From sequence record OL739525.1: a stretch of 64,000 nucleotides of DNA, one strand, 5' to 3'. Positions 3,947-56,070 of this stretch are shown here, piece by piece. The notes below the pieces were generated by a model. It searched no databases. It saw nothing but the letters and a program-made list of their open reading frames with translations, and was not told the origin of the DNA. The translations under genes were made by a program, and so were the position numbers. The number at the start of each line of letters is the position of its first letter. Within the stretch, counting starts at the first letter, position 1. Source of the stretch: Escherichia phage dw-ec.

Positions 3947-5320
3947 ATGGCAACTTTTCGTGAAAAGGTAGCAACCGTAACTTTACTGTATGGTGCTACA
4001 TCAATTCGTGAAACCCAGTTCGATATTCCCCTGATCCTTACAGGTCAGAACGTAACTGGCGAAGCGATTCAATATTACTCTTCTTCCGATGCACTTTTGG
4101 AAGCAGGTTATGGATTAAATGATCCAGCGTATATTATGGCAGTCAAACTGTTTAACGGTTTGTTCCCACCAGATCAAGTCATGGTTGGTAAGCGTGAAGT
4201 TACAAACTTTACTCTAACTCCAATCGTAGAAGATAGTGCAACTTACACAATTACCATCAAAAATGGTACCAAGAAAAAAGAATTTAAATTCATTGCTGAT
4301 GACACTGCAACTGCACAAGAGATTGTAGTTGGTCTGACTGAAATGATCAATGCAGATCTTGTTTATGGCCCACTGTTTACAGTAGCTAACAACGGCGCTG
4401 CAATGACTTTCACTCCAGTAGAAGGTAAGTTTGGTTCTATTGACAGCACAGGTTTCACTCAAGAAACTGTCTATGCTAATGCTATTACGGAAGATATTGC
4501 TGCTCTGCATGATATTGATAGTAGCTGGTTCTGGACCCTTTCAGATTCCCATGAAACAGAAGATGTTCTAGCTTTGGCTGCATGGGTAGAAGAGAATGAT
4601 AAAGTTTACTTCTTCTCTAGCTCTGAACCTGGAATTAAAACGAAAGCAGAAGATAACGTTCTGGAACGACTGAATGACCTCGGTTATAATAACACTTGCT
4701 TTGCTTTGTGGATGACCGATGCAGATTCTGTATTCCCAGAAGCAGCAGTTGTTGGTGCAATCTGTTCTCGTCAACCTGGTTTAACTACTCTTCACGGTAA
4801 AACACTGGTAGGTGTAGAGATCGAGAAACTGGATCAGACTTCGGAAAACAATATTGTTCAACAGAACGGCAACATCTATCGTAAAGAGCATGGAACTCTG
4901 TTCTATCGTGATGGATTGATGGTTAGCGGTTTCTTTGTTGACTATGTTGTTCATGCTTTGTGGTTTAAAGCTCGCACAGAAGAATCACTGTTTACACTGT
5001 TTAAACAACAGTCTATGCTGGGTGGTGGCGTTCGTGCTACTTCAAACGGTCTGGCTTTGATTCGACAAGCTGTTCTGGCTAACCCGATCCAAGTAGGTAT
5101 CCTCAACGGTTCCATCGCTAATGAAGTTGTTACTTCTGAAGAGACTGGTTTGCGTGTCGATCTGAAACCTATTGTTTATATTCCTTCTCGTGCTGATATG
5201 ACTGATGCGCAAATCAATGCTCGTCTGGTCGATGGGATGAAGATTGAATATGTTTACGCTGGCTTCTTCCATTACGTTAAAGTTCAGGTCAACGTCCTGA
5301 CTAACCGTACTGCAAACTAA
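3947..5320 (+). CDS. tail sheath protein (putative)
   Basis: 457 aa, RBS AGGAG. Conserved myovirus order sheath, tube, chaperone pair, tape measure. No motif verified. Confidence 0.55.
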   Translation: MATFREKVATVTLLYGATSIRETQFDIPLILTGQNVTGEAIQYYSSSDALLEAGYGLNDPAYIMAVKLFNGLFPPDQVMVGKREVTNFTLTPIVEDSATYTITIKNGTKKKEFKFIADDTATAQEIVVGLTEMINADLVYGPLFTVANNGAAMTFTPVEGKFGSIDSTGFTQETVYANAITEDIAALHDIDSSWFWTLSDSHETEDVLALAAWVEENDKVYFFSSSEPGIKTKAEDNVLERLNDLGYNNTCFALWMTDADSVFPEAAVVGAICSRQPGLTTLHGKTLVGVEIEKLDQTSENNIVQQNGNIYRKEHGTLFYRDGLMVSGFFVDYVVHALWFKARTEESLFTLFKQQSMLGGGVRATSNGLALIRQAVLANPIQVGILNGSIANEVVTSEETGLRVDLKPIVYIPSRADMTDAQINARLVDGMKIEYVYAGFFHYVKVQVNVLTNRTAN

Positions 5321-45287: not shown

Positions 45288-45319
45288 ATTTTGCCTCCTT
45301 TTTAAGTTAACGAATTTCT

Positions 45320-45348
45320 AGTATAACACGATAGAGGCTTTATTGCAA
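45320..45348 (-). promoter_or_regulatory. sigma70-like promoter (TTGCAA-N17-TATACT)
   Basis: On the minus strand, -35 TTGCAA at 45348-45343 and -10 TATACT at 45325-45320, upstream of the lysin gene. Confidence 0.5.
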
Positions 45349-45368
45349 GAGGGGGATTTCTCCCCCTC
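45349..45368 (-). other. GC-rich hairpin after the TerD-like gene
   Basis: GAGGGGGA-TTTC-TCCCCCTC abutting the -35 element; no U-run. Confidence 0.35.
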
Positions 45369-45386
45369 AAAATCATTTGTTAATTA

Positions 45387-45989
45387 TTATGGACATTCAT
45401 ACCATTCTTTTTTACCACCGAAGGCCATCACCACATCGCAAATATCCAGACCGGCTTTACCTACACCATATGCTTTCAGCTTCCATTCCCCATCTTCACG
45501 AACCAAGGAAGCCACGTGGCAGATTGTGTTACCAGCTACTTCAGGAGCCAGGAAGTCAAAATCCAGAATTTCCACATTACGTTCGGAGTCAAAGATTTTA
45601 AGCATACCTTCAGAAGCATGACCAAAACGTTTCAGACCTGTATCATCATCAATGGTCAGAACAAAGGCAATCTCTTGTGCATCAGGAGAGATTTTAGCCA
45701 GAGTAATATCAATCTGCTCCATGCTGCCAGTCCCATCACGAACATCGTCACCAGCGAAGGTAGAACGTTCAGGATCAAACTTGTTAGCGTAGCAAACCAG
45801 ATGACGTGCAGACAGCATTTCAGGATTGCCAGCGGCATTATGACGACAAACCAGTGCACTTACATCCAGATCCAGTTTAGAATCAGATTTCCAAGAGAAT
45901 TCCAGGCGCAGTTCTTTCAGAGCCGGAGCAACTTTCTTCAGGGAAATTTTTTCGCTAGAGCCTTTTTTCAGGGAAATTTTATCAGTCAT
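45387..45989 (-). CDS. TerD-family protein
   Basis: 200 aa. Aligns by eye along its length to E. coli TerD recalled from memory: N-terminal ISLKKG..ISLKK, DLDVSALV, GDDVRDGTG, FVLTIDD, GEWKLKAYGVG. Confidence 0.7.
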   Translation of the reverse strand: MTDKISLKKGSSEKISLKKVAPALKELRLEFSWKSDSKLDLDVSALVCRHNAAGNPEMLSARHLVCYANKFDPERSTFAGDDVRDGTGSMEQIDITLAKISPDAQEIAFVLTIDDDTGLKRFGHASEGMLKIFDSERNVEILDFDFLAPEVAGNTICHVASLVREDGEWKLKAYGVGKAGLDICDVVMAFGGKKEWYECP

Positions 45990-46004
45990 CTTTTGTCTCC
46001 TCTA

Positions 46005-46274
46005 TTATTTAAGTGTAATACCAGTTACAGTCAATTCTACTTCCAAAAGCTTAGATGTGTTTTGGATTGATACTAATTGTGCATGATGGTTTAGTTCTAC
46101 AGCGGAATAATCATTCTCCCCATCGTCTACTTTTAAATAAACAATGATTTCACTAAGGTCTAAACCATTTTCGTCAAATGCATTTTCATAGACGAAAGTA
46201 TCTCCTACATCCAAATCTTTAATGGTAAGGCATCGTTTATTTACTTTTTGCTCATCAATTTCGAAGTTTAACAC
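46005..46274 (-). CDS. hypothetical protein (paralog of 47296-47574)
   Basis: 89 aa. Shares DLDVGDTFVYENAFDENGLD and a C-terminal TVTGITLK-type motif with the gene downstream of the vWA gene. Confidence 0.45.
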   Translation of the reverse strand: MLNFEIDEQKVNKRCLTIKDLDVGDTFVYENAFDENGLDLSEIIVYLKVDDGENDYSAVELNHHAQLVSIQNTSKLLEVELTVTGITLK

Positions 46275-46503
46275 TTCTTCCTCCTAATGTTATCTCCGGT
46301 TTGTATATACGAAGAATTATAGCATTTTCATTTTCTTTGTCAACCCATTCTTCATAATCGGGCCATACATGAATCTCTACTCTACTTACAATATCTTCCA
46401 TTCGCACAGTCCCAATGAAATACTCTTTGAGACTGCGCATAATGAAAGCTTCTCTCTCGCGCCAATAATTTTCTACGACTTGAGAGGCAAGCTCGTCGAT
46501 CAT
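46255..46503 (-). CDS. hypothetical protein
   Basis: 82 aa ORF coupled to its neighbours. Confidence 0.4.
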   Translation of the reverse strand: MIDELASQVVENYWREREAFIMRSLKEYFIGTVRMEDIVSRVEIHVWPDYEEWVDKENENAIILRIYKPEITLGGRSVKLRN

Positions 46504-47294
46504 TTTTTAGCACCTACTTTAACAACCCACTCTCCGAACTCTTCAGATAAGAGTTTGTCATAAAGCTCTGAATCTGTCAAGTCTAAATCTTTAATGCCAA
46601 TAAAACCAACATTATCATAAGCATTTGCCAGTTCTTTCAGGAAGCCAAACTTCTCATTACCAACGCCAACCATGAACCAATAAATAGGTTTATTCTTATT
46701 CTCTTCAATAAGACGACGAACAGCACTAGGATCACCATTCTCACCATCCGTCTGGAAGAATACAACACCAGGGGTAACGTCAGCACCTGGTTCAGATACA
46801 GCTACAACTTTTTCACGCTCTACAGACACTGTTTCAGTTTTACCAAGCAGACGATTAAAGAAGCCTTTCTTTGGAGCCTCCTCTTGTACCACTTGTTTAG
46901 TGGTAATATATTTGGTAACAGTGCCAAAATACTCATCGTAGATATCTGCCATTACAGGGGCGTAATTTGTTCCACCTCCGATACGAACATTACGCATACA
47001 TTTACCAACATAGTCATCGTAAACGTCTGCTGTTGCTGGAGTAAGCTCTTGGGAACTCGTATTGAAGGCCCACATATCAATTTGTTGATTATCGTCGAAC
47101 AGCATACCAAAAGGAAGCAGTTTACCTACAAAATCACTCACTACCCCACTAGAATATAGACCATGCATACTACCAGAAATATCTAGAGCACATGCTACAC
47201 GAAGAACAATCTTACCTTCATTCAGGTTCTTATTCTTTTTCAGAGAGAAAGCAAGGTTTTCTTGACGTTTTTTCAGGCTGATTTTCTCGGACAT
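46500..47294 (-). CDS. von Willebrand factor A domain protein (TerY-like)
   Basis: 264 aa with MIDAS-type motif DISGSM. N-terminus MSEKISLKK resembles the TerD-like N-terminus. Confidence 0.55.
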   Translation of the reverse strand: MSEKISLKKRQENLAFSLKKNKNLNEGKIVLRVACALDISGSMHGLYSSGVVSDFVGKLLPFGMLFDDNQQIDMWAFNTSSQELTPATADVYDDYVGKCMRNVRIGGGTNYAPVMADIYDEYFGTVTKYITTKQVVQEEAPKKGFFNRLLGKTETVSVEREKVVAVSEPGADVTPGVVFFQTDGENGDPSAVRRLIEENKNKPIYWFMVGVGNEKFGFLKELANAYDNVGFIGIKDLDLTDSELYDKLLSEEFGEWVVKVGAKK

Positions 47295-47295
47295 A

Positions 47296-47574
47296 TTATT
47301 TCTCCTTCTTAAGTGTAATATTGGTAACTTCTAAATCTACTTCCACCATATTTGTATCTGGTGGGATGCAATGAGTATAGCCTCGTTGTGCTAGTGATCC
47401 ATTAATACAAATCGCACTGTTTGTGGAATTTTTAATGAACACCAAGTTACGGTAGGTATCCAACCCTGCGTCTTCATAGGCATCATAATACATGAATGTG
47501 GCCCCTACATCAAGATCTTCGAAAGCAATAGGTAAATCCTGACTTTTTTCTTCTTGAATATTGAATCTAAACAC
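47296..47574 (-). CDS. hypothetical protein (paralog of 46005-46274)
   Basis: Track ORF 47296-47640. A GTG at 47574 after RBS GAGGAGG avoids overlap with the upstream gene. Shares DLDVGATFMYYDAYEDAGLD...VTNITLKK. Confidence 0.4.
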   Translation of the reverse strand: MFRFNIQEEKSQDLPIAFEDLDVGATFMYYDAYEDAGLDTYRNLVFIKNSTNSAICINGSLAQRGYTHCIPPDTNMVEVDLEVTNITLKKEK

Positions 47575-48130
47575 GCATACCTCCTCTACCAATTTTGAAG
47601 CCCAAATCGTAAGCTTCCTTAGTGATCTTTTGTAACTCACTTATAGGAAGTGTTACAAGAGGATCATCTTCTTCAATTTCCATCTTGTCATCTTCTGTTT
47701 CAATGAGAGTATTATGCACTTTGTGATAAGGGTTGTCAACACGTTTAAACTTATTCTTTTCTGTGCTGAAAAAACAATCTGGATCTTCTTCACCATCACC
47801 CCAACCTTGGTTAGGATCTCCGTCAGATTGTTCTGTAGGGATTTCACCTGTAAAGTACTCTTCCAGCACCATAGCGATACCGTCCCTTGGATTTGAGGAA
47901 TGCATCAAATCACAAACCTTACTCCAATCCATAGCCCATTCAAATCGTTCACGAACACCATTTTCATCCTCCTTTCCAGAGAAAACACAACCATAACTAT
48001 CATAGTTGCCATACATCTCTTCAATAACAACACCGTCCTTCAAAAGAAAGAGGTAGCAAGGTGATCCGTCGAAAGAAGTAGAAAGGGCAGCTTTGCCCGA
48101 TTCTTTGCACAAAAAGCTAAAACAACCCAT
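47567..48130 (-). CDS. hypothetical acidic protein
   Basis: 187 aa ORF. Confidence 0.45.
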   Translation of the reverse strand: MGCFSFLCKESGKAALSTSFDGSPCYLFLLKDGVVIEEMYGNYDSYGCVFSGKEDENGVRERFEWAMDWSKVCDLMHSSNPRDGIAMVLEEYFTGEIPTEQSDGDPNQGWGDGEEDPDCFFSTEKNKFKRVDNPYHKVHNTLIETEDDKMEIEEDDPLVTLPISELQKITKEAYDLGFKIGRGGMRV

Positions 48131-48528
48131 TACAAACCCTCCTTCAGATTATCAAGAGCTACAGTGGTTTCACAAAATTCTCCATAAGCTTTATGATGTT
48201 CCAGAAAAGCTTCGGGTCCACCCCAGTCATTATCTTGTGTATTCCAGCCATCTATAAAAGCATCTTCAATGATTGTGATCAGTTCCTGTCGAGTCAACGT
48301 AATGGTATCAGGTTTCTGCGTAGTTTCCACACGGAACCCTGGTTCTTCATAAAAACCTTTAGTTATAATGGATTCTAACTCTTCTGCATCACAGAGGAAG
48401 TAGCCACAAAGATAACACCAACCGTCATCATCTTTCATTACTTCATAAACTTCACCACTTGCCAAATTAGTGAAAAGAGTAGGGTCTGTTACTGTAAGTT
48501 TTAAAAGAATACCTGTTGGATTATACAT
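48130..48528 (-). CDS. hypothetical protein
   Basis: 132 aa ORF with overlapping start and stop. Confidence 0.45.
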   Translation of the reverse strand: MYNPTGILLKLTVTDPTLFTNLASGEVYEVMKDDDGWCYLCGYFLCDAEELESIITKGFYEEPGFRVETTQKPDTITLTRQELITIIEDAFIDGWNTQDNDWGGPEAFLEHHKAYGEFCETTVALDNLKEGL

Positions 48529-48693: not shown

Positions 48694-48891
48694 TTACTCC
48701 TCCTCCTCATTGAAGTCAATATCTGCAAGGAGTTCGAATTTACGGAAGTTACGACAACCTTCATAAATATAACAATCACGACAAACTGCTAGAACACTTG
48801 GGGGATATATACCTCCCATCGGCGCGAATCGTTTTTCGTCATCATAACGGACACCAATGTCCTCATCAATTATATAGATACGGATTCTCAT
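48694..48891 (-). CDS. hypothetical small protein
   Basis: 65 aa ORF. Confidence 0.35.
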   Translation of the reverse strand: MRIRIYIIDEDIGVRYDDEKRFAPMGGIYPPSVLAVCRDCYIYEGCRNFRKFELLADIDFNEEEE

Positions 48892-50000
48892 TTACCAAGC
48901 CCTCGTTTCACAGCAGCTACCATCCCGTCTTCCAGAGATTGAACTTCATTAATATAATCAACACGAGCAGCACGGGCTTCCGTATTGATGCGGTTAGTTT
49001 CTTCCAACATCTTAACCAAGTTTTCCTGATCGTGACGCAGAGTTTCAATATCCAACACTTGACGGTTAGCCAGTGCTGCTGCTTCGATCTGATTCTGTGT
49101 GGCAAGATCGCTACCCAGTTTAATTGCCAGGTTAAATTCATCAAGAACGTTATTCTGCGTCTCTGCTGCTTTCATTTGACGTAAGCTCTCGATATACATT
49201 GAGAAGTTAGCAGAGTAAGCAGGAATAACATTATTTACTATGTTACGCGCAGATCGCATTAAGCTTGCAGAAACTTTTTGCATACCTTGTACACGCGGTC
49301 CCATTTGGACACACAGTAGGCGCAATGCTTTTAAATCTGCAATACGAATCTCCAGAAGATCCAAAGTATCTCGGATCACTTGTCGCTGTTCTACTGCATC
49401 TTCTGGAAGAGCAGCCAAAGCTTGTTCTTCTTTTTCATAGGTTGCTGTTAGAAGCTGCATATCTCGGTTCAAACTTGCAGCATATTGTCCAATAGCTTGA
49501 TGTAGCTTTTCAAGATATACCAAGGAATCTTCTTCTTTGCGAATATCCATTTGAAGGTTCTTTACCAACTCTTCAATACGGTTATTAACATTATCAAACT
49601 CCCCGAACAGGTCTTCTTTCATACCCATAACTTTTTTAATGAGTTTAGTAATACCCTTGCTTTGTTTAATAGAGTTTGGATCAAGTTGTTTTGCCTGTTT
49701 AATCAAAGCTGTAAGTCGTTCACTCATCTGATCGCCTTGATTACTACGTTGATGTTTTAACACCTCGGCATTCAAGGAACGCAAGGTTGTTCCTGCCTCT
49801 GCCCCAATCTCTTCAATCTCTTGTCGGGTCATAGAAGGCAAAACTGGAACTTCTTGCGGTGCCGCTGGTGCATAAACAGGACTGGCATCTAACACGCTTG
49901 GAGCGAATACAGATTTACTTGCATCTGTTGTTGCAGCGAATACACTCATTTCAGACTTCTTCTGACCACCAGTAGCTGCTTTTAAAAATGGACTTGTCAT
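48888..50000 (-). CDS. TelA-like (toxic anion resistance family) coiled-coil protein, tentative
   Basis: 370 aa, largely helical, of the size expected for TelA/KlaB-type proteins and flanked by TerD, vWA and TerC genes. No diagnostic motif verified. Confidence 0.4.
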   Translation of the reverse strand: MTSPFLKAATGGQKKSEMSVFAATTDASKSVFAPSVLDASPVYAPAAPQEVPVLPSMTRQEIEEIGAEAGTTLRSLNAEVLKHQRSNQGDQMSERLTALIKQAKQLDPNSIKQSKGITKLIKKVMGMKEDLFGEFDNVNNRIEELVKNLQMDIRKEEDSLVYLEKLHQAIGQYAASLNRDMQLLTATYEKEEQALAALPEDAVEQRQVIRDTLDLLEIRIADLKALRLLCVQMGPRVQGMQKVSASLMRSARNIVNNVIPAYSANFSMYIESLRQMKAAETQNNVLDEFNLAIKLGSDLATQNQIEAAALANRQVLDIETLRHDQENLVKMLEETNRINTEARAARVDYINEVQSLEDGMVAAVKRGLGK

Positions 50001-52211: not shown

Positions 52212-53186
52212 TTAAATAGCAGCTTCTTCTTTTTCAGGGAAGATAAAGCTTGCAATAACACCAAGAGCTAATGTGCCTAGAACAATCATCAGACTTACGT
52301 TAGGGGAAATATCATGCGGGAGGAATGACCACTTGGCATGAAGTGTTTCACCGAACGGGTGGTACATAAGTTTAGCACCAACAAACACCAGAACCACAGC
52401 AACAGCTTTCTCTAAGTGAACCAGATATTTCACAGCTACACTCAACACAAAGAAAAGTGCACGTAAACCAAGAACAGCCATCAGCATTGCAGAATAAACT
52501 AGCAGAGGTTCTTGTGTCACACCGATCACAGCCGGAACTGAATCAAAAGAGAAGACAATATCTGTAAGCTCAATAACAAACACACAAAGAAGAGCAGGAG
52601 TTGCATATTTAATACCATTCTTAATGGTGATGAACTTTTCACCATCCAGTGCATTGTGCACAGGCAGAACTTTACCTACTAAACGAACAGCCCAATGCTT
52701 AGAGTAATCAATATCCTCTTCTTCGTCACCACCTTTGATGATAGCCACGGCAGACCAAGCTACAATCAAACCGAACAACACTTGGACCGACCAATGAAGG
52801 TTAAACAAAGCGGTCCCTGCTGCAACAAAAATACCTCGGAAGACAATGGCTCCTGCAATCCCCCAAAGTAGAATCTTATGTTGGAGATGTGTGCTCTTAA
52901 TTCCAAAGCTTGCAAAAATCGCCATGAACACCATCAGGTTATCTACAGAAAGACTCTTTTCCAACACATAGCCACTTAGGAAAAGCGCGGCAAACTCTTT
53001 ACCATGTTCTACCCAAATGAATGCGTAATATCCTAAAGCTAAAGCAATCCAAAAAACAGACCAAAGCAAAGCAGATTTAATTCCAATTTCTTTATTCTCT
53101 TTATGACCAAAGAAATCGATACCAATAGACAATGCCAAAATACCAACTAAAACAACTACATCAATAATTGGGAAACCGAGTTGCAT
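52212..53186 (-). CDS. TerC-family integral membrane protein
   Basis: 324 aa, multiple TM helices. Characteristic GYVLEKSLSVDN and ELTDIVFSFDSVPAV motifs. Confidence 0.7.
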   Translation of the reverse strand: MQLGFPIIDVVVLVGILALSIGIDFFGHKENKEIGIKSALLWSVFWIALALGYYAFIWVEHGKEFAALFLSGYVLEKSLSVDNLMVFMAIFASFGIKSTHLQHKILLWGIAGAIVFRGIFVAAGTALFNLHWSVQVLFGLIVAWSAVAIIKGGDEEEDIDYSKHWAVRLVGKVLPVHNALDGEKFITIKNGIKYATPALLCVFVIELTDIVFSFDSVPAVIGVTQEPLLVYSAMLMAVLGLRALFFVLSVAVKYLVHLEKAVAVVLVFVGAKLMYHPFGETLHAKWSFLPHDISPNVSLMIVLGTLALGVIASFIFPEKEEAAI

Positions 53187-53499: not shown

Positions 53500-53973
53500 T
53501 TAAAGTTTATAAATAGTCACATCGTGACCTGTTTTTACTAAAGTTTCTTCAATCATCACTTGGATGATAGCCCAATTACCTCCAGCATATCCAGCGCCAA
53601 TCATAGGTAAGCCGATCTTACATTTTTGGTCACGGAGAAGCAAATCATTAGCCATAGCTATTAGTGCATCGTAAAGTGCATCATAGTCCAACTGACGACC
53701 TTTAGCATTGTATCCATAACGGTATTGCCCGTATAGATTATATACCAAAGGGTCTGATTGTTCGTCTGGCACCCCTAAACTAAAACAACCTAGTTTACTT
53801 TGATCACCAGCCATTGTGTCTAAGTCTGCTGCATATGCGTAAGGAAATGCTTGTTTGATTTGTGGGGCAATACCTGCCCCCATATTACACATACAGTTGC
53901 AACAATGAGCAATAACAGTTACTTCACCTGCTTTAGCGGCATCAATAAGATTACCTCTTTTCATTTTAAGCAT
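53500..53973 (-). CDS. macro-domain-like protein (tentative)
   Basis: Track ORF 53500-54078. The ATG at 53973 follows RBS AAGGAG. Segments VIAHCCNCMCNMGAGIA and KIGLPMIGAGYAGGNW resemble macro-domain motifs; a LOG-like fold is an alternative. Confidence 0.35.
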   Translation of the reverse strand: MLKMKRGNLIDAAKAGEVTVIAHCCNCMCNMGAGIAPQIKQAFPYAYAADLDTMAGDQSKLGCFSLGVPDEQSDPLVYNLYGQYRYGYNAKGRQLDYDALYDALIAMANDLLLRDQKCKIGLPMIGAGYAGGNWAIIQVMIEETLVKTGHDVTIYKL

Positions 53974-53986
53974 TTTTAGCTCCTTA

Positions 53987-54814
53987 TTACAGAATGTGTT
54001 GTTTTGTGTAACGATCCAAGAATTCAAAGTTTTCAGCATACTTTGAAATTCGGTTGTAACCTTCTCCCAAACATCCAAAGAAAAGTTGCTCTACATAGTA
54101 ATGTGGCAATTGGCTAAGAATGATTTTGAAGTCTTCATGATTTTGGCCCATAAGATACTTAATAGGACGAACAAGACACTGTGCATCACGTTCTTCATTA
54201 ATCATTTTAACAAACGCTTCTGGTGTATTAATGTAGTTAAAATTCAGTTTAGCTTCGGTATCTGCTTGATTACCTTCGTATTTTGCAAAATACAAGAAGT
54301 AAACATCATTTTTAACTTGATTTTCATCAAGGATCTCAATCAGTTTGTCTTCATGCGTTCCAGTGATATTTACATCATCAATGAATACAAGCTTCTTATC
54401 ACCCCAGAATTCTTTGTTGCAGTAGAATGTATCCCCATCAATAAGTTTCTTACGACTAGCTTTATCCAAGAAACCATAATCGTTGATATAGCTAACTTTA
54501 CGATGAATAATGTCCAGTTCTGCTGAACGACCTTGATCATATTGTGATTGCAACATATTAAAATAATTAATAAAATGATCTGTCATCATTGTTGCAGCAT
54601 TATGCACATGGTTATAAGGAGAAGGAATGATAACAAATTGTTCCCCAATATGTTTCATTGCCACTTGAGCAAAAAACTGAAGTGCCAATTCTTTACCCAT
54701 ACGACGCGCAGCTTGGTTACTACCAAATTTCAATTTTGAATAATCTTGGATATCAAAAGTAGCAGTTTCCAGGTCATCAAATTTATTTGCAAAAATTTGA
54801 GTTTGATTACGCAT
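53987..54814 (-). CDS. phosphoribosyltransferase-fold protein (PRTase or PRPP-synthetase-like)
   Basis: 275 aa. PRPP-binding-type motif KKLVFIDDVNITGTHEDK. Confidence 0.55.
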   Translation of the reverse strand: MRNQTQIFANKFDDLETATFDIQDYSKLKFGSNQAARRMGKELALQFFAQVAMKHIGEQFVIIPSPYNHVHNAATMMTDHFINYFNMLQSQYDQGRSAELDIIHRKVSYINDYGFLDKASRKKLIDGDTFYCNKEFWGDKKLVFIDDVNITGTHEDKLIEILDENQVKNDVYFLYFAKYEGNQADTEAKLNFNYINTPEAFVKMINEERDAQCLVRPIKYLMGQNHEDFKIILSQLPHYYVEQLFFGCLGEGYNRISKYAENFEFLDRYTKQHIL

Positions 54815-55463
54815 TTACAATTTCTCCTCTTTTAAGTTTCTCTAGTAAGTCGTTAGGGTTCTTAATATGACAGAAGTTAAATCCTAAGTCAACACATTTT
54901 CCATCATATTCTTCACTATCACCTACATGCAACACTTCGTGCCCTAACAGAGGGATCGGAGAATACGTGAGCGTGCGAGCAAAGAATCGCGGATCTGGTT
55001 TACAAAGTAAAGCTTCATCCGAGAAATGGGTGAACTCAAAACAATTCCAACTATCAAACTTACAAGCACGACGCAGGATATCCCCTGATATGAAGTTGGT
55101 ATTGCTCTTAATACTCAAATCATAACGCCCCGAAAGATACAGCAAGTACATCGGCAGATCCACGGCTACGTGTGGTGGAAACTTAAGGAACCACTGTTCA
55201 CACTCGAAACGAAGCTTTGCAGACTTCCAAGGCGTTATCCCAAGTTCAGAACCAAGTCTTTCCCAGGCGTATGCTGCACACTCGGCTTTGCCTTGAAGTG
55301 CTGCATTATCCAGTTCCTTTTTGATCTTTTTATAAGCTGCTCTTGCTTCCACTTCCGTAATATCTCCATATTTTGCGATAGTCCAGGCTCGCATGTCTGC
55401 GTAATTGGAGTTTGCTGTGATCAGTGTGTTCCATACATCAAAAGAGATATGTTTAATAGTCAT
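54807..55463 (-). CDS. HAD-superfamily hydrolase (putative)
   Basis: 218 aa. Motif I-like SFDVWNTLI, LCKPDPRFF and HVGDSEEYDG. Confidence 0.55.
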   Translation of the reverse strand: MTIKHISFDVWNTLITANSNYADMRAWTIAKYGDITEVEARAAYKKIKKELDNAALQGKAECAAYAWERLGSELGITPWKSAKLRFECEQWFLKFPPHVAVDLPMYLLYLSGRYDLSIKSNTNFISGDILRRACKFDSWNCFEFTHFSDEALLCKPDPRFFARTLTYSPIPLLGHEVLHVGDSEEYDGKCVDLGFNFCHIKNPNDLLEKLKRGEIVNA

Positions 55464-55464
55464 A

Positions 55465-56070
55465 TTAAGCCCACCATGCGTCTAAGTTAAGATTACTGTC
55501 CACTACCACTTGTTCTATGTGGTAGCCTTTTATCTGTATCCCACTATTCAAGAGCATATCATACGCTTCATTGAAACGCAACTTATCTTCTGCGGAATAT
55601 AAGCGAGCATTATAAAATCGGTAATCAACTTCTTCAGCATTAGAAGAAATACGGAAGAAGTTTGTTTCTACTTCGGGATCACTTGCTGAAGTCTTAATGT
55701 GAACTTCTCCGTAATTTTCTTTACTTAGATCCATGAAAAGAACACAGGCAACATGTTTAAACATTCGTTCCAGCTTGTAACGAACAACATTGAAACCTGC
55801 ATTCTCAAGTTTTTCTACACACTGCAACATTAAAGTAGTGTCGAGATCGCTTTGATACTTTGTTAACATACGATCACGTTGAGACTTTGTATCCCGATGT
55901 AAATCAATTGTTGTGCATTTGGCACCAATAATCTTAGCTGCTTTCATCAACTCTTCAGAACTAACGTTAGATAAAGTAAGATGAAAATGGGCTTTCCACA
56001 CTTTTTTAGCAGGGACACCAAAAGATTTATCCCCACTATTCGGCATGTTGACTACTACACTATGTTGCAT
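55465..56070 (-). CDS. hypothetical protein (possible divergent 2H phosphoesterase)
   Basis: 201 aa. One clear H-x-T-x motif (AHFHLTLSN); the second (VHIKTS) is poor. Confidence 0.4.
   Translation of the reverse strand: MQHSVVVNMPNSGDKSFGVPAKKVWKAHFHLTLSNVSSEELMKAAKIIGAKCTTIDLHRDTKSQRDRMLTKYQSDLDTTLMLQCVEKLENAGFNVVRYKLERMFKHVACVLFMDLSKENYGEVHIKTSASDPEVETNFFRISSNAEEVDYRFYNARLYSAEDKLRFNEAYDMLLNSGIQIKGYHIEQVVVDSNLNLDAWWA

Follow-up and report, generated by a model that had tools for sequence, protein, structure and literature searches.

The TerD protein and the TerF-type vWA protein encoded in a 64,000-nucleotide stretch of DNA from Escherichia phage dw-ec (OL739525.1; the whole stretch is referred to here as the window) have unrelated folds and share an N-terminal element of about 20 residues that contains two h-S-L-x-K motifs. 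TerD starts with MTDKISLKKGSSEKISLKK and the vWA protein with MSEKISLKKRQENLAFSLKK, and the KISLKK peptide that an initial annotation of this DNA had seen at the start of both proteins is indeed present. When the two genes are compared across genomes, their starts agree within each lineage and differ across lineages, and this co-evolving N-terminal element is a real feature of the pair. Two small genes, S1 and S2, lie next to the TerD and the vWA gene respectively. Ter systems occur widely, in bacteria and plasmids as well as in phages, and have been linked for decades to tellurite, colicin and phage resistance; the Ter stress-response or exclusion system (terZABCDEF, telA) is said to have been described by Anantharaman, Iyer and Aravind in 2012.

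The shared N-terminal element

Local alignment of the first 25 residues of TerD and the vWA protein gives a score of 39, compared with 19.7 ± 4.0 for shuffled sequences, and was reached by 4 of 5000 composition-preserving shuffles. As a single comparison, BLASTP of the two N-termini gives an E-value (E) of 0.013. In a six-frame translation of the window I/F-SLKK is found at the four motif sites of TerD and the vWA protein; elsewhere there is only a VSLKK at 4452-4466 (plus strand).

For the comparison across genomes 78 bacterial and 80 viral loci with a TerF-type vWA gene were fetched. A stand-alone vWA gene together with a separate TerD gene was present in 55 of these, and 27 were left after dereplication. 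TerD-vWA fusions provided 3 usable sequences after dereplication, too few for a co-variation test. Set side by side, the vWA and TerD proteins start with KISLKK and KISLKK in the window, with KVSLKK in both proteins of L010 and with MAKVSLKK in both of L099. The corresponding pairs are MAINLQK and MAINLEK in Gallionellaceae (L018), MVAFNLEK and MATFNLEK in Uhrbacteria (L019), MPLNLEK and MPLSLEK in L119, LSVEK in both proteins of a Caulobacter phage (L124), and MAVIDLEK...ISLAK and MSVIDLSK...INLAK in a Brevundimonas phage. Over residues 2-12 the mean BLOSUM score of own-genome pairs is 15.67 as against 10.99 ± 0.89 for permuted pairs (z 5.2) and the mean number of identities 4.26 as against 3.10 (z 6.1), neither own-genome value being reached in any of 20,000 permutations. 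The z-score is 3.9 when the permutation is restricted to quartiles of GC content and still 4.3 when the five close relatives of the window are left out. The signal is weaker over residues 13-23 (z 2.0-3.3), and the control windows 24-34 and 30-40 show no excess in the 27 loci (z -0.5 and 0.2); the match stops sharply after about residue 23. Composition bias as the source of the co-variation was rejected on the basis of the GC-restricted permutations and the flat control windows. As most of these lineages have no S gene, the co-variation is independent of S.

Identical residues in the two proteins are encoded by the same codon in 60 of 115 cases, where about 50 would be expected. For serine, the window, L002 and L004 have AGC or AGT in one gene as against TCC in its neighbour, and L109 has AGC as against TCA; all four loci belong to the group of this phage. 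Because the codons at shared residues often differ, selection at the protein level, rather than recent gene conversion, would appear to keep the match; an mRNA-level cause of the shared start was rejected for the same reason. The initial annotation had taken the common start to point to a common targeting or assembly mechanism. The co-variation of the peptide at the protein level over the 27 dereplicated loci would fit such a mechanism; the peptide is also kept where there are no small genes. No mention of the co-variation or of the S family was found in the searchable papers, which did not include the 2012 reference analysis of Ter systems, and the N-terminal co-variation seems to be undescribed.

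In TerD the peptide lies inside the fold, the Pfam match beginning as early as residue 5. In the alignment ISLKKGSSEKISLKK is paired with VSLSKGG-NVSLSK in strands 1-2 of the solved structures 2KXT and 3IBZ, and KISLKK is strand 1, in the first β-hairpin of the domain. The protein matches PF02342 with 98.9 bits (cut-off 25.3), residues 5-179 corresponding to profile positions 3-177, and aligns over its full length with both structures (phmmer E 1.5e-15 for 2KXT and 2.9e-14 for 3IBZ). In an alignment of 11 phage and bacterial sequences D40, D42, D82 and E91, candidate residues of a Ca2+ site, are invariant, and LDLDVSA and GDDVRDGTGSMEQ align with the segments of 2KXT that correspond to them; the conserved acidic motifs of the Ca2+ sites in solved TerD are DxD and GD..G..G/E.

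In the vWA protein the peptide falls outside the Pfam vWA core yet is conserved throughout the family. A start of the hxLxK...hxLxK type was seen in all 57 stand-alone vWA homologues with an N-terminus, down to 25% identity and including the bacterial ones, with L7, K9, L18 and K20 nearly invariant. In bacterial TerD-vWA fusions the element sits between the two domains, for example LNLTKIDLLKRKVTLSLEKK in Paenibacillus. Since it is present in phages and bacteria, and in stand-alone and fused proteins alike, the element is neither a phage invention nor a detachable leader. The earlier idea of a leader added to two different domains has thus to be given up: the peptide is strand 1 in TerD and, in the vWA protein, an extension found family-wide and also in the TerD-vWA fusions. 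A profile-profile alignment of the TerD and vWA families brings together 31 N-terminal columns with a P-value of 1.9e-4.

The vWA protein matches PF10138 (vWA-TerF-like) with 130.1 bits (cut-off 29.4), in two stretches that are split by an insert. By sequence its metal-binding MIDAS (metal ion-dependent adhesion site) is intact, with D38-x-S40-x-S42 (ALDISGSM), T109 and D183; among 30 vWA homologues D38, S42, T109 and D183 are invariant and S40 nearly so. An AlphaFold2 model has the vWA fold, with a predicted local distance difference test score (pLDDT) of 89.7, and Foldseek matches it to integrin I-domains and copines. The copine-type vWA domains of BON1 and RGLG1/2 are among the best structural matches (Foldseek E ~1e-5) and have the MIDAS in common with it, and there is a weak Pfam Copine match to the phage protein. 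Copines, however, are eukaryotic and have C2 domains before the vWA domain, with no TerD domain and no hSLxK element, and the phage protein has an extra β-hairpin insert of about 40 residues. In the model residues ~127-167 (46794-46916) form a long two-stranded β-hairpin arm (pLDDT 67-88), which splits the Pfam match and is absent from the bacterial TerF used in the alignment. In Escherichia phage KKP 3954 (OR067838.1; P0031) the vWA protein is annotated as 158 amino acids (aa) and tblastn covers the query only in two pieces; the gene is probably frameshifted.

As a single chain of 264 aa without a TerD domain, the protein of the window is not a TerF fusion, TerD being encoded by a separate gene. 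TerF belongs to the same vWA family and has the same hxLxK...hxLxKK element directly before its vWA domain, but is one chain, whereas here there are separate proteins with separate predicted promoters and a vWA start that tracks the neighbouring TerD. Most of the bacterial TerF-type vWA genes recovered (L020-L092, from Paenibacillus, Lysinibacillus, Cytobacillus and others) are fusions. The N-terminal TerD domain of these fusions aligns with the phage-based TerD profile no earlier than about position 38, and at some of the loci the opposite strand encodes a further TerD-domain protein, about 460 aa long.

The small S proteins

S1 and S2 are paralogues, as the initial annotation had proposed. 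They are identical at 29 of 89 residues (33%; BLASTP E 3e-13), their Smith-Waterman score of 123 compares with 26.6 ± 5.1 in 5000 shuffles, none of which reached it (z 19), and the motifs DLDVG(D/A)TF, GLD and VT(G/N)ITLK are common to both. The small open reading frames (ORFs) are genes and not spurious, as seen from their strong Shine-Dalgarno sites, their ratios of non-synonymous to synonymous substitution (dN/dS) of 0.17-0.42 and a confident AlphaFold2 model. These ratios come from comparison with the homologues of phi92, PsgM04F and 05F01, at which synonymous sites are near saturation, and point to purifying selection on the S genes. Both proteins match phrog_11278 from end to end (S1 with E 7e-45, residues 1-89 on the 92-position profile; S2 with E 4e-51, residues 1-92 of 92), so the paralogy was already implicit in a public database. 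The PHROGs entry carries neither function nor context; that S is strictly linked to vWA and TerD and varies in copy number is a result of the present analysis.

Modelling of S from the family alignment (AlphaFold2, pLDDT 84.5) predicts a small SH3-like barrel. Sequence identity to known SH3-like barrels, namely the ribosomal L2 C-terminal domain, KOW, Tudor, FeoA and EF-P domain I, is only 4-21%, and the scores are too low for functional inference. A structure search of BFVD returned the S family itself and otherwise only weak matches to small uncharacterised phage proteins. The possibility that S is a fragment or relative of TerD was rejected (hhalign probability 0.3%). The C-termini of the S proteins (e.g. 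47296-47330 and 46005-46030) have a strand-like h-x-h-x-L-K tail, seen as VTNITLKK, VTGITLK, VSSVKLK or VSDVSLK, which is similar to the ISLKK motif in the product of the following gene and lies outside the barrel in the monomer model.

An initial word-index search with S1 alone gave 2 clusters. The profile search of 1.84 billion representative proteins gave just 20, of which 17 are 87-93 aa long, two are fragments of 54-55 aa and one is a spurious repeat protein of 1191 aa; it returned no bacterial S homologue and none that is fused to another domain. From this the family appears to be confined to Stephanstirmvirinae-like phages. In all 19 S-bearing loci S adjoins vWA, TerD or both. The arrangement S-vWA-X82-S-TerD, in which X82 is a further small gene, is found at 5 loci (this phage, PsgM04F and phiWec179), S-vWA-TerD at 4 (phi92 and 05F01), vWA-S-TerD at 5, vWA-S-S-TerD at 3, and S-TerD at the end of a contig at 1. 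The 19th locus, in Escherichia phage EF1-1 (L001; PQ571289.1), has the arrangement of the window with S2 split in two. Here the match to the S profile is divided between two ORF fragments, and the only coding sequence annotated at this place is one of 198 nt, as would result from a frameshift or from an error in sequencing. The S1 homologue is named 'RNA ligase' in this record, for which this analysis gives no support.

S genes are absent from the close relatives L095 (vWA 69% identical) and L099, from FBKp34, from the Brevundimonas and Caulobacter phages and from all of the bacterial loci; hidden S genes were looked for in FBKp34, Marchewka, L095 and L099 and none was found. L095, L099 and the distant Ter-bearing phages and bacteria keep the shared peptide without S. 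By its distribution S is an accessory gene, tied to the cassette yet dispensable, which undergoes duplication and changes its place. In the group of this phage a rough neighbour-joining tree separates the copies upstream of vWA from those upstream of TerD. X82 is present only in phages that also carry S1; the S profile does not match it, and it was rejected as a diverged S paralogue.

These results alter the picture of two duplicated two-gene units. Only the small gene is duplicated, TerD and the vWA protein being unrelated folds. That each large gene is followed by a small one is correct as to adjacency and wrong as to order, since on the minus strand S2 comes before vWA and S1 before TerD. 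A private small partner for each large protein is seen in one phage lineage; elsewhere there are 0, 1 or 2 copies of S in shifting positions. What survives of the two units is that in this phage each pair of S and large gene stands behind its own predicted sigma-70-type promoter.

A possible role in Ter assembly

The chances seem to us about even that the shared element of some 20 residues is a docking piece through which the Ter complex is assembled, S being an optional accessory. The stand-alone vWA protein would then carry a copy of the hairpin of the resident TerD, and both proteins would fit one socket. The socket could be the TerD sandwich itself, through hairpin exchange or edge-strand pairing, or another Ter protein that both of them bind, TelA or TerC for instance. 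Docking would give a non-covalent TerD-vWA unit, which TerF has as a single chain. S1 and S2 might bind or modulate the vWA protein and TerD as adaptors or assembly helpers, and the duplication of S may have provided each transcription unit with its own copy in Phapecoctavirus. A bolder version, which we think improbable, would see in the h-S-L-x-K hairpin a portable co-evolving tag that sets membership of the Ter complex, the vWA mimic plugging into TerD or its TelA/TerC receptor, with the S proteins as tag-binding adaptors that time or place assembly in Stephanstirmvirinae-like phages. A short co-evolving element offers a concrete and cheap experimental handle on the assembly of the Ter proteins. 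The phage cassette is a compact natural system, with strong promoters and 0, 1 or 2 S genes in close relatives, suited to comparison of an accessory factor.

Several observations weigh against docking through a common hairpin. The profile-profile probability for TerD and vWA is just 48%. The AlphaFold2 model shows residues 7-20 of the vWA protein as an α-helix (pLDDT 81-93) and not as a hairpin, and if this is correct the vWA peptide is no structural copy of the TerD hairpin, although the i,i+2 hydrophobic pattern (I-S-L, F-S-L) looks to fit strands better than a helix. The permutation test was made over the 27 dereplicated loci without full phylogenetic correction, and the use of the same codon is slightly above expectation, such that there may have been old gene-conversion events. 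For the accessory, the absence of S from close relatives and from other Ter lineages means that it is not essential to TerD or vWA function, and its tie to that function rests solely on gene position.

It is conceivable, though in our view unlikely, that the small proteins are themselves the readers of the peptide, the acidic SH3-like barrel of S binding the product of the adjacent gene by its basic KISLKK N-terminus and delivering or assembling that product. SH3-like barrels are classic peptide binders. S1 and S2 are acidic (isoelectric point, pI, 4.3-4.4) and the peptide lysine-rich, S always adjoins vWA or TerD and is predicted to be translationally coupled to them, and the tails of S (FRFNI... 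and ...VTNITLKK) are strand-like and outside the barrel in the monomer model. The peptide is, however, shared and co-varies equally where there is no S, in the Brevundimonas, Caulobacter and FBKp34 phages, in bacteria and in L095 and L099, and many phages have a single S gene for two large proteins.

Somewhat less likely again is that occasional gene conversion or recombination between the neighbouring 5' ends makes the N-termini match, with no function beyond the constraint on each family. The genes are adjacent and have a short similar stretch in common, and the excess of same-codon use (60 as against 50 of 115) would fit. Conversion does not readily account for identical residues that are often encoded by unrelated codons, as for the serines of the window, L002, L004 and L109, nor for the sharp break after about residue 23, and, with different peptides in more than 20 separate lineages, a tract of about 30 nt would have to be converted time after time. 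If the co-variation did come about by gene conversion, the locus would be no more than an ordinary phage-borne Ter operon that includes two small genes without an assigned function.

The resemblance could also be a relic, the stand-alone vWA protein having arisen from a TerF-type fusion by deletion of the TerD body with retention of the first hairpin and having no shared function at present. TerD-vWA fusions are common and the 31 N-terminal columns of the two families do align, but in the fusions an hxLxK element stands between the domains while TerD has its own N-terminus as well; the element is therefore part of the vWA module and not the remains of a deletion. Continued co-variation with the neighbouring TerD would also be left unexplained, and we regard this origin as quite improbable. 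Pure coincidence, with a Lys/Ser-rich low-complexity start in two genes and unrelated phage filler for the small ORFs, would suit the modest single-pair statistics and the dispensability of the S genes and is very improbable indeed given the permutation result with its flat position controls, the z-score of 19 for S1 and S2 and the presence of S in the cassette at 19 of 19 S-bearing loci.

The Ter module and its gene features

Every gene of the S2/vWA/X82/S1/TerD region is on the minus strand (Table 1), and the order of transcription is the 187-aa gene, S2, vWA, X82, S1, TerD and a cell-wall hydrolase gene. The wider module on this strand runs PRTase_3, HAD-like hydrolase, TerC, SprT-like, TelA, S2, vWA, X82, S1 and TerD, the SprT-like protein upstream of S2 also being a Pfam match. 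The clustering of TerD with TerC, TelA, vWA and PRTase/HAD genes is that of the gene-neighbourhood definition of a Ter system, and by its gene content the locus is a fairly complete phage-borne example. The genes from S2 to TerD come last in this module, which is of the tellurite-resistance (Ter) type and would serve in stress response or exclusion.

Table 1. Positions of the genes, shared elements and predicted promoters in the window
Feature	Position	Strand	Description
TerD	45387-45989	minus	200 aa, PF02342
TerD codons 1-19	45933-45989	minus	shared element MTDKISLKKGSSEKISLKK, first β-hairpin of the TerD fold
S1	46005-46274	minus	89 aa, pI 4.3, phrog_11278
X82	46255-46503	minus	82 aa, phrog_22387, function not assigned
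Perfect sigma-70 consensus	46316-46343	minus	TTGACA-16 nt-TATAAT, extended -10 TG, inside X82
TerF-type vWA	46500-47294	minus	264 aa, PF10138
vWA codons 1-20	47235-47294	minus	shared element MSEKISLKKRQENLAFSLKK, two h-S-L-K-K motifs
S2	47296-47574	minus	92 aa, pI 4.4, GTG start, phrog_11278
187-aa gene	47567-48130	minus	phrog_14928, very acidic, upstream of S2
Sigma-70-like promoter	47711-47739	minus	TTGACA-17 nt-CATAAT, 11/12, inside 187-aa gene
132-aa gene	48130-48528	minus	phrog_14200 (C-terminal half only), very acidic, upstream of S2
TelA (PF05816)	48888-50000	minus	Pfam match
TerC (PF03741)	52212-53186	minus	Pfam match
PRTase_3, ComF-like phosphoribosyltransferase (PRTase; PF15610)	53987-54814	minus	Pfam, E 2e-41
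HAD-like hydrolase	54807-55463	minus	E 4.3e-4, 21.2 bits, under Pfam cut-off of 26.4

The S2 ORF extends to 47640. The start chosen, GTG at 47574, has a GAGGAGG Shine-Dalgarno sequence 5 nt upstream, and the S2 homologues of phi92 and PsgM04F begin at the equivalent position. The ATG of vWA is 1 nt past the stop of S2, with its Shine-Dalgarno sequence within the K-K-E-K codons that end S2. The vWA stop overlaps X82 by 4 nt, X82 overlaps the start of S1 by 20 nt, and the ATG of TerD is 15 nt past the stop of S1. The perfect (12/12) promoter inside X82, whose end is 42 nt upstream of S1, has a conserved counterpart in Pseudomonas phage PsgM04F; by our own estimate about 0.003 such matches would be expected by chance in this stretch. 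The 11/12 promoter ends 137 nt upstream of S2, and phi92 and PsgM04F have it in the same place. In phi92, 05F01, L095 and L099, which have no S directly upstream of TerD, a 10/12 promoter site lies 38-101 nt upstream of TerD. With conserved predicted promoters upstream of S2 and of S1, S2-vWA(-X82) and S1-TerD each look like a separate transcription unit in this phage, and the S genes are predicted to be co-transcribed and translationally coupled with the vWA or TerD gene.

The domain set is that of the Ter system, with TerD, TerF-type vWA, TelA, TerC, PRTase_3 and the HAD-like hydrolase on one strand; no Ter system described so far includes the S family (phrog_11278) or X82. TerD, the vWA protein and their neighbours are ordinary members of a known phage-borne system, and S is an already catalogued family. 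Phage-encoded Ter operons are known from jumbo phages, 'related smaller tailed phages' and Klebsiella phage phiKp34 (PMC7824862; PMC8386662), and phage-borne versions with TerD, TerC, TerF-vWA and TelA have been described (PMC7824862, Iyer et al, 2021; PMC8386662). A literature search found no experimental paper on these phage Ter genes. PADLOC models (E <= 0.01) did not match TerD, S1, X82, vWA, S2, the 187-aa protein or TelA, and Pfam, NCBIfam and PADLOC gave nothing for S1, S2, X82 or the 187-aa protein. The labels 'RNA ligase' and 'RNA-binding protein' given to genes of the region in two GenBank records are not supported by this analysis.

Within 53500-56070 (minus strand), beside TerC, there are also a 201-aa protein without a Pfam match and a weak match to the Macro domain (E 2e-4, just under the cut-off). 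Together with the PRTase_3 and HAD genes these would represent what is called the 'nucleoside-like metabolite' branch in Ter systems, possibly with an ADP-ribose-related twist. In the relative L095 the 132-aa protein is represented only by a 68-aa version. Directly after the stop of TerD an 8-bp GC-rich hairpin, GAGGGGGA-GAAA-TCCCCCTC, is present at 45349-45368 (minus strand); it has no U-tract and was therefore missed by the terminator scan. Directly after it, at 45320-45348 (minus strand), lies a promoter-like site for the cell-wall hydrolase gene, TTGCAA-17 nt-TATACT with TG.

Over positions 45300-47700 identity is 99.6% to Escherichia phage ETEC-TG and 98.8-99.5% to 29 further records, listed among 64 at 95% or more and mostly of Phapecoctavirus (phAPEC8-like). 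Identity to Justusliebigvirus (phi92-like) and other Stephanstirmvirinae is 60-80%. On these identities the window belongs to a Phapecoctavirus genome. Host label or sample purity looks doubtful for three records: MG065650.1 ('Campylobacter phage B15'), with proteins 98.9% identical to those of E. coli Phapecoctavirus, MG065656.1 ('Campylobacter phage C3'), with 63% protein identity, like Justusliebigvirus, and OP562383.1 ('Acinetobacter phage vB_AbaM_ABPW7'), with DNA 99% identical to E. coli Phapecoctavirus. The locus L016 (JAEZZU010000159.1, 'MAG: Proteobacteria bacterium OH_PFB_59') is an 18.6-kb contig with a vWA protein 100% identical to that of the window in the arrangement S-vWA-S-TerD, and is a Phapecoctavirus fragment mis-binned as bacterial.

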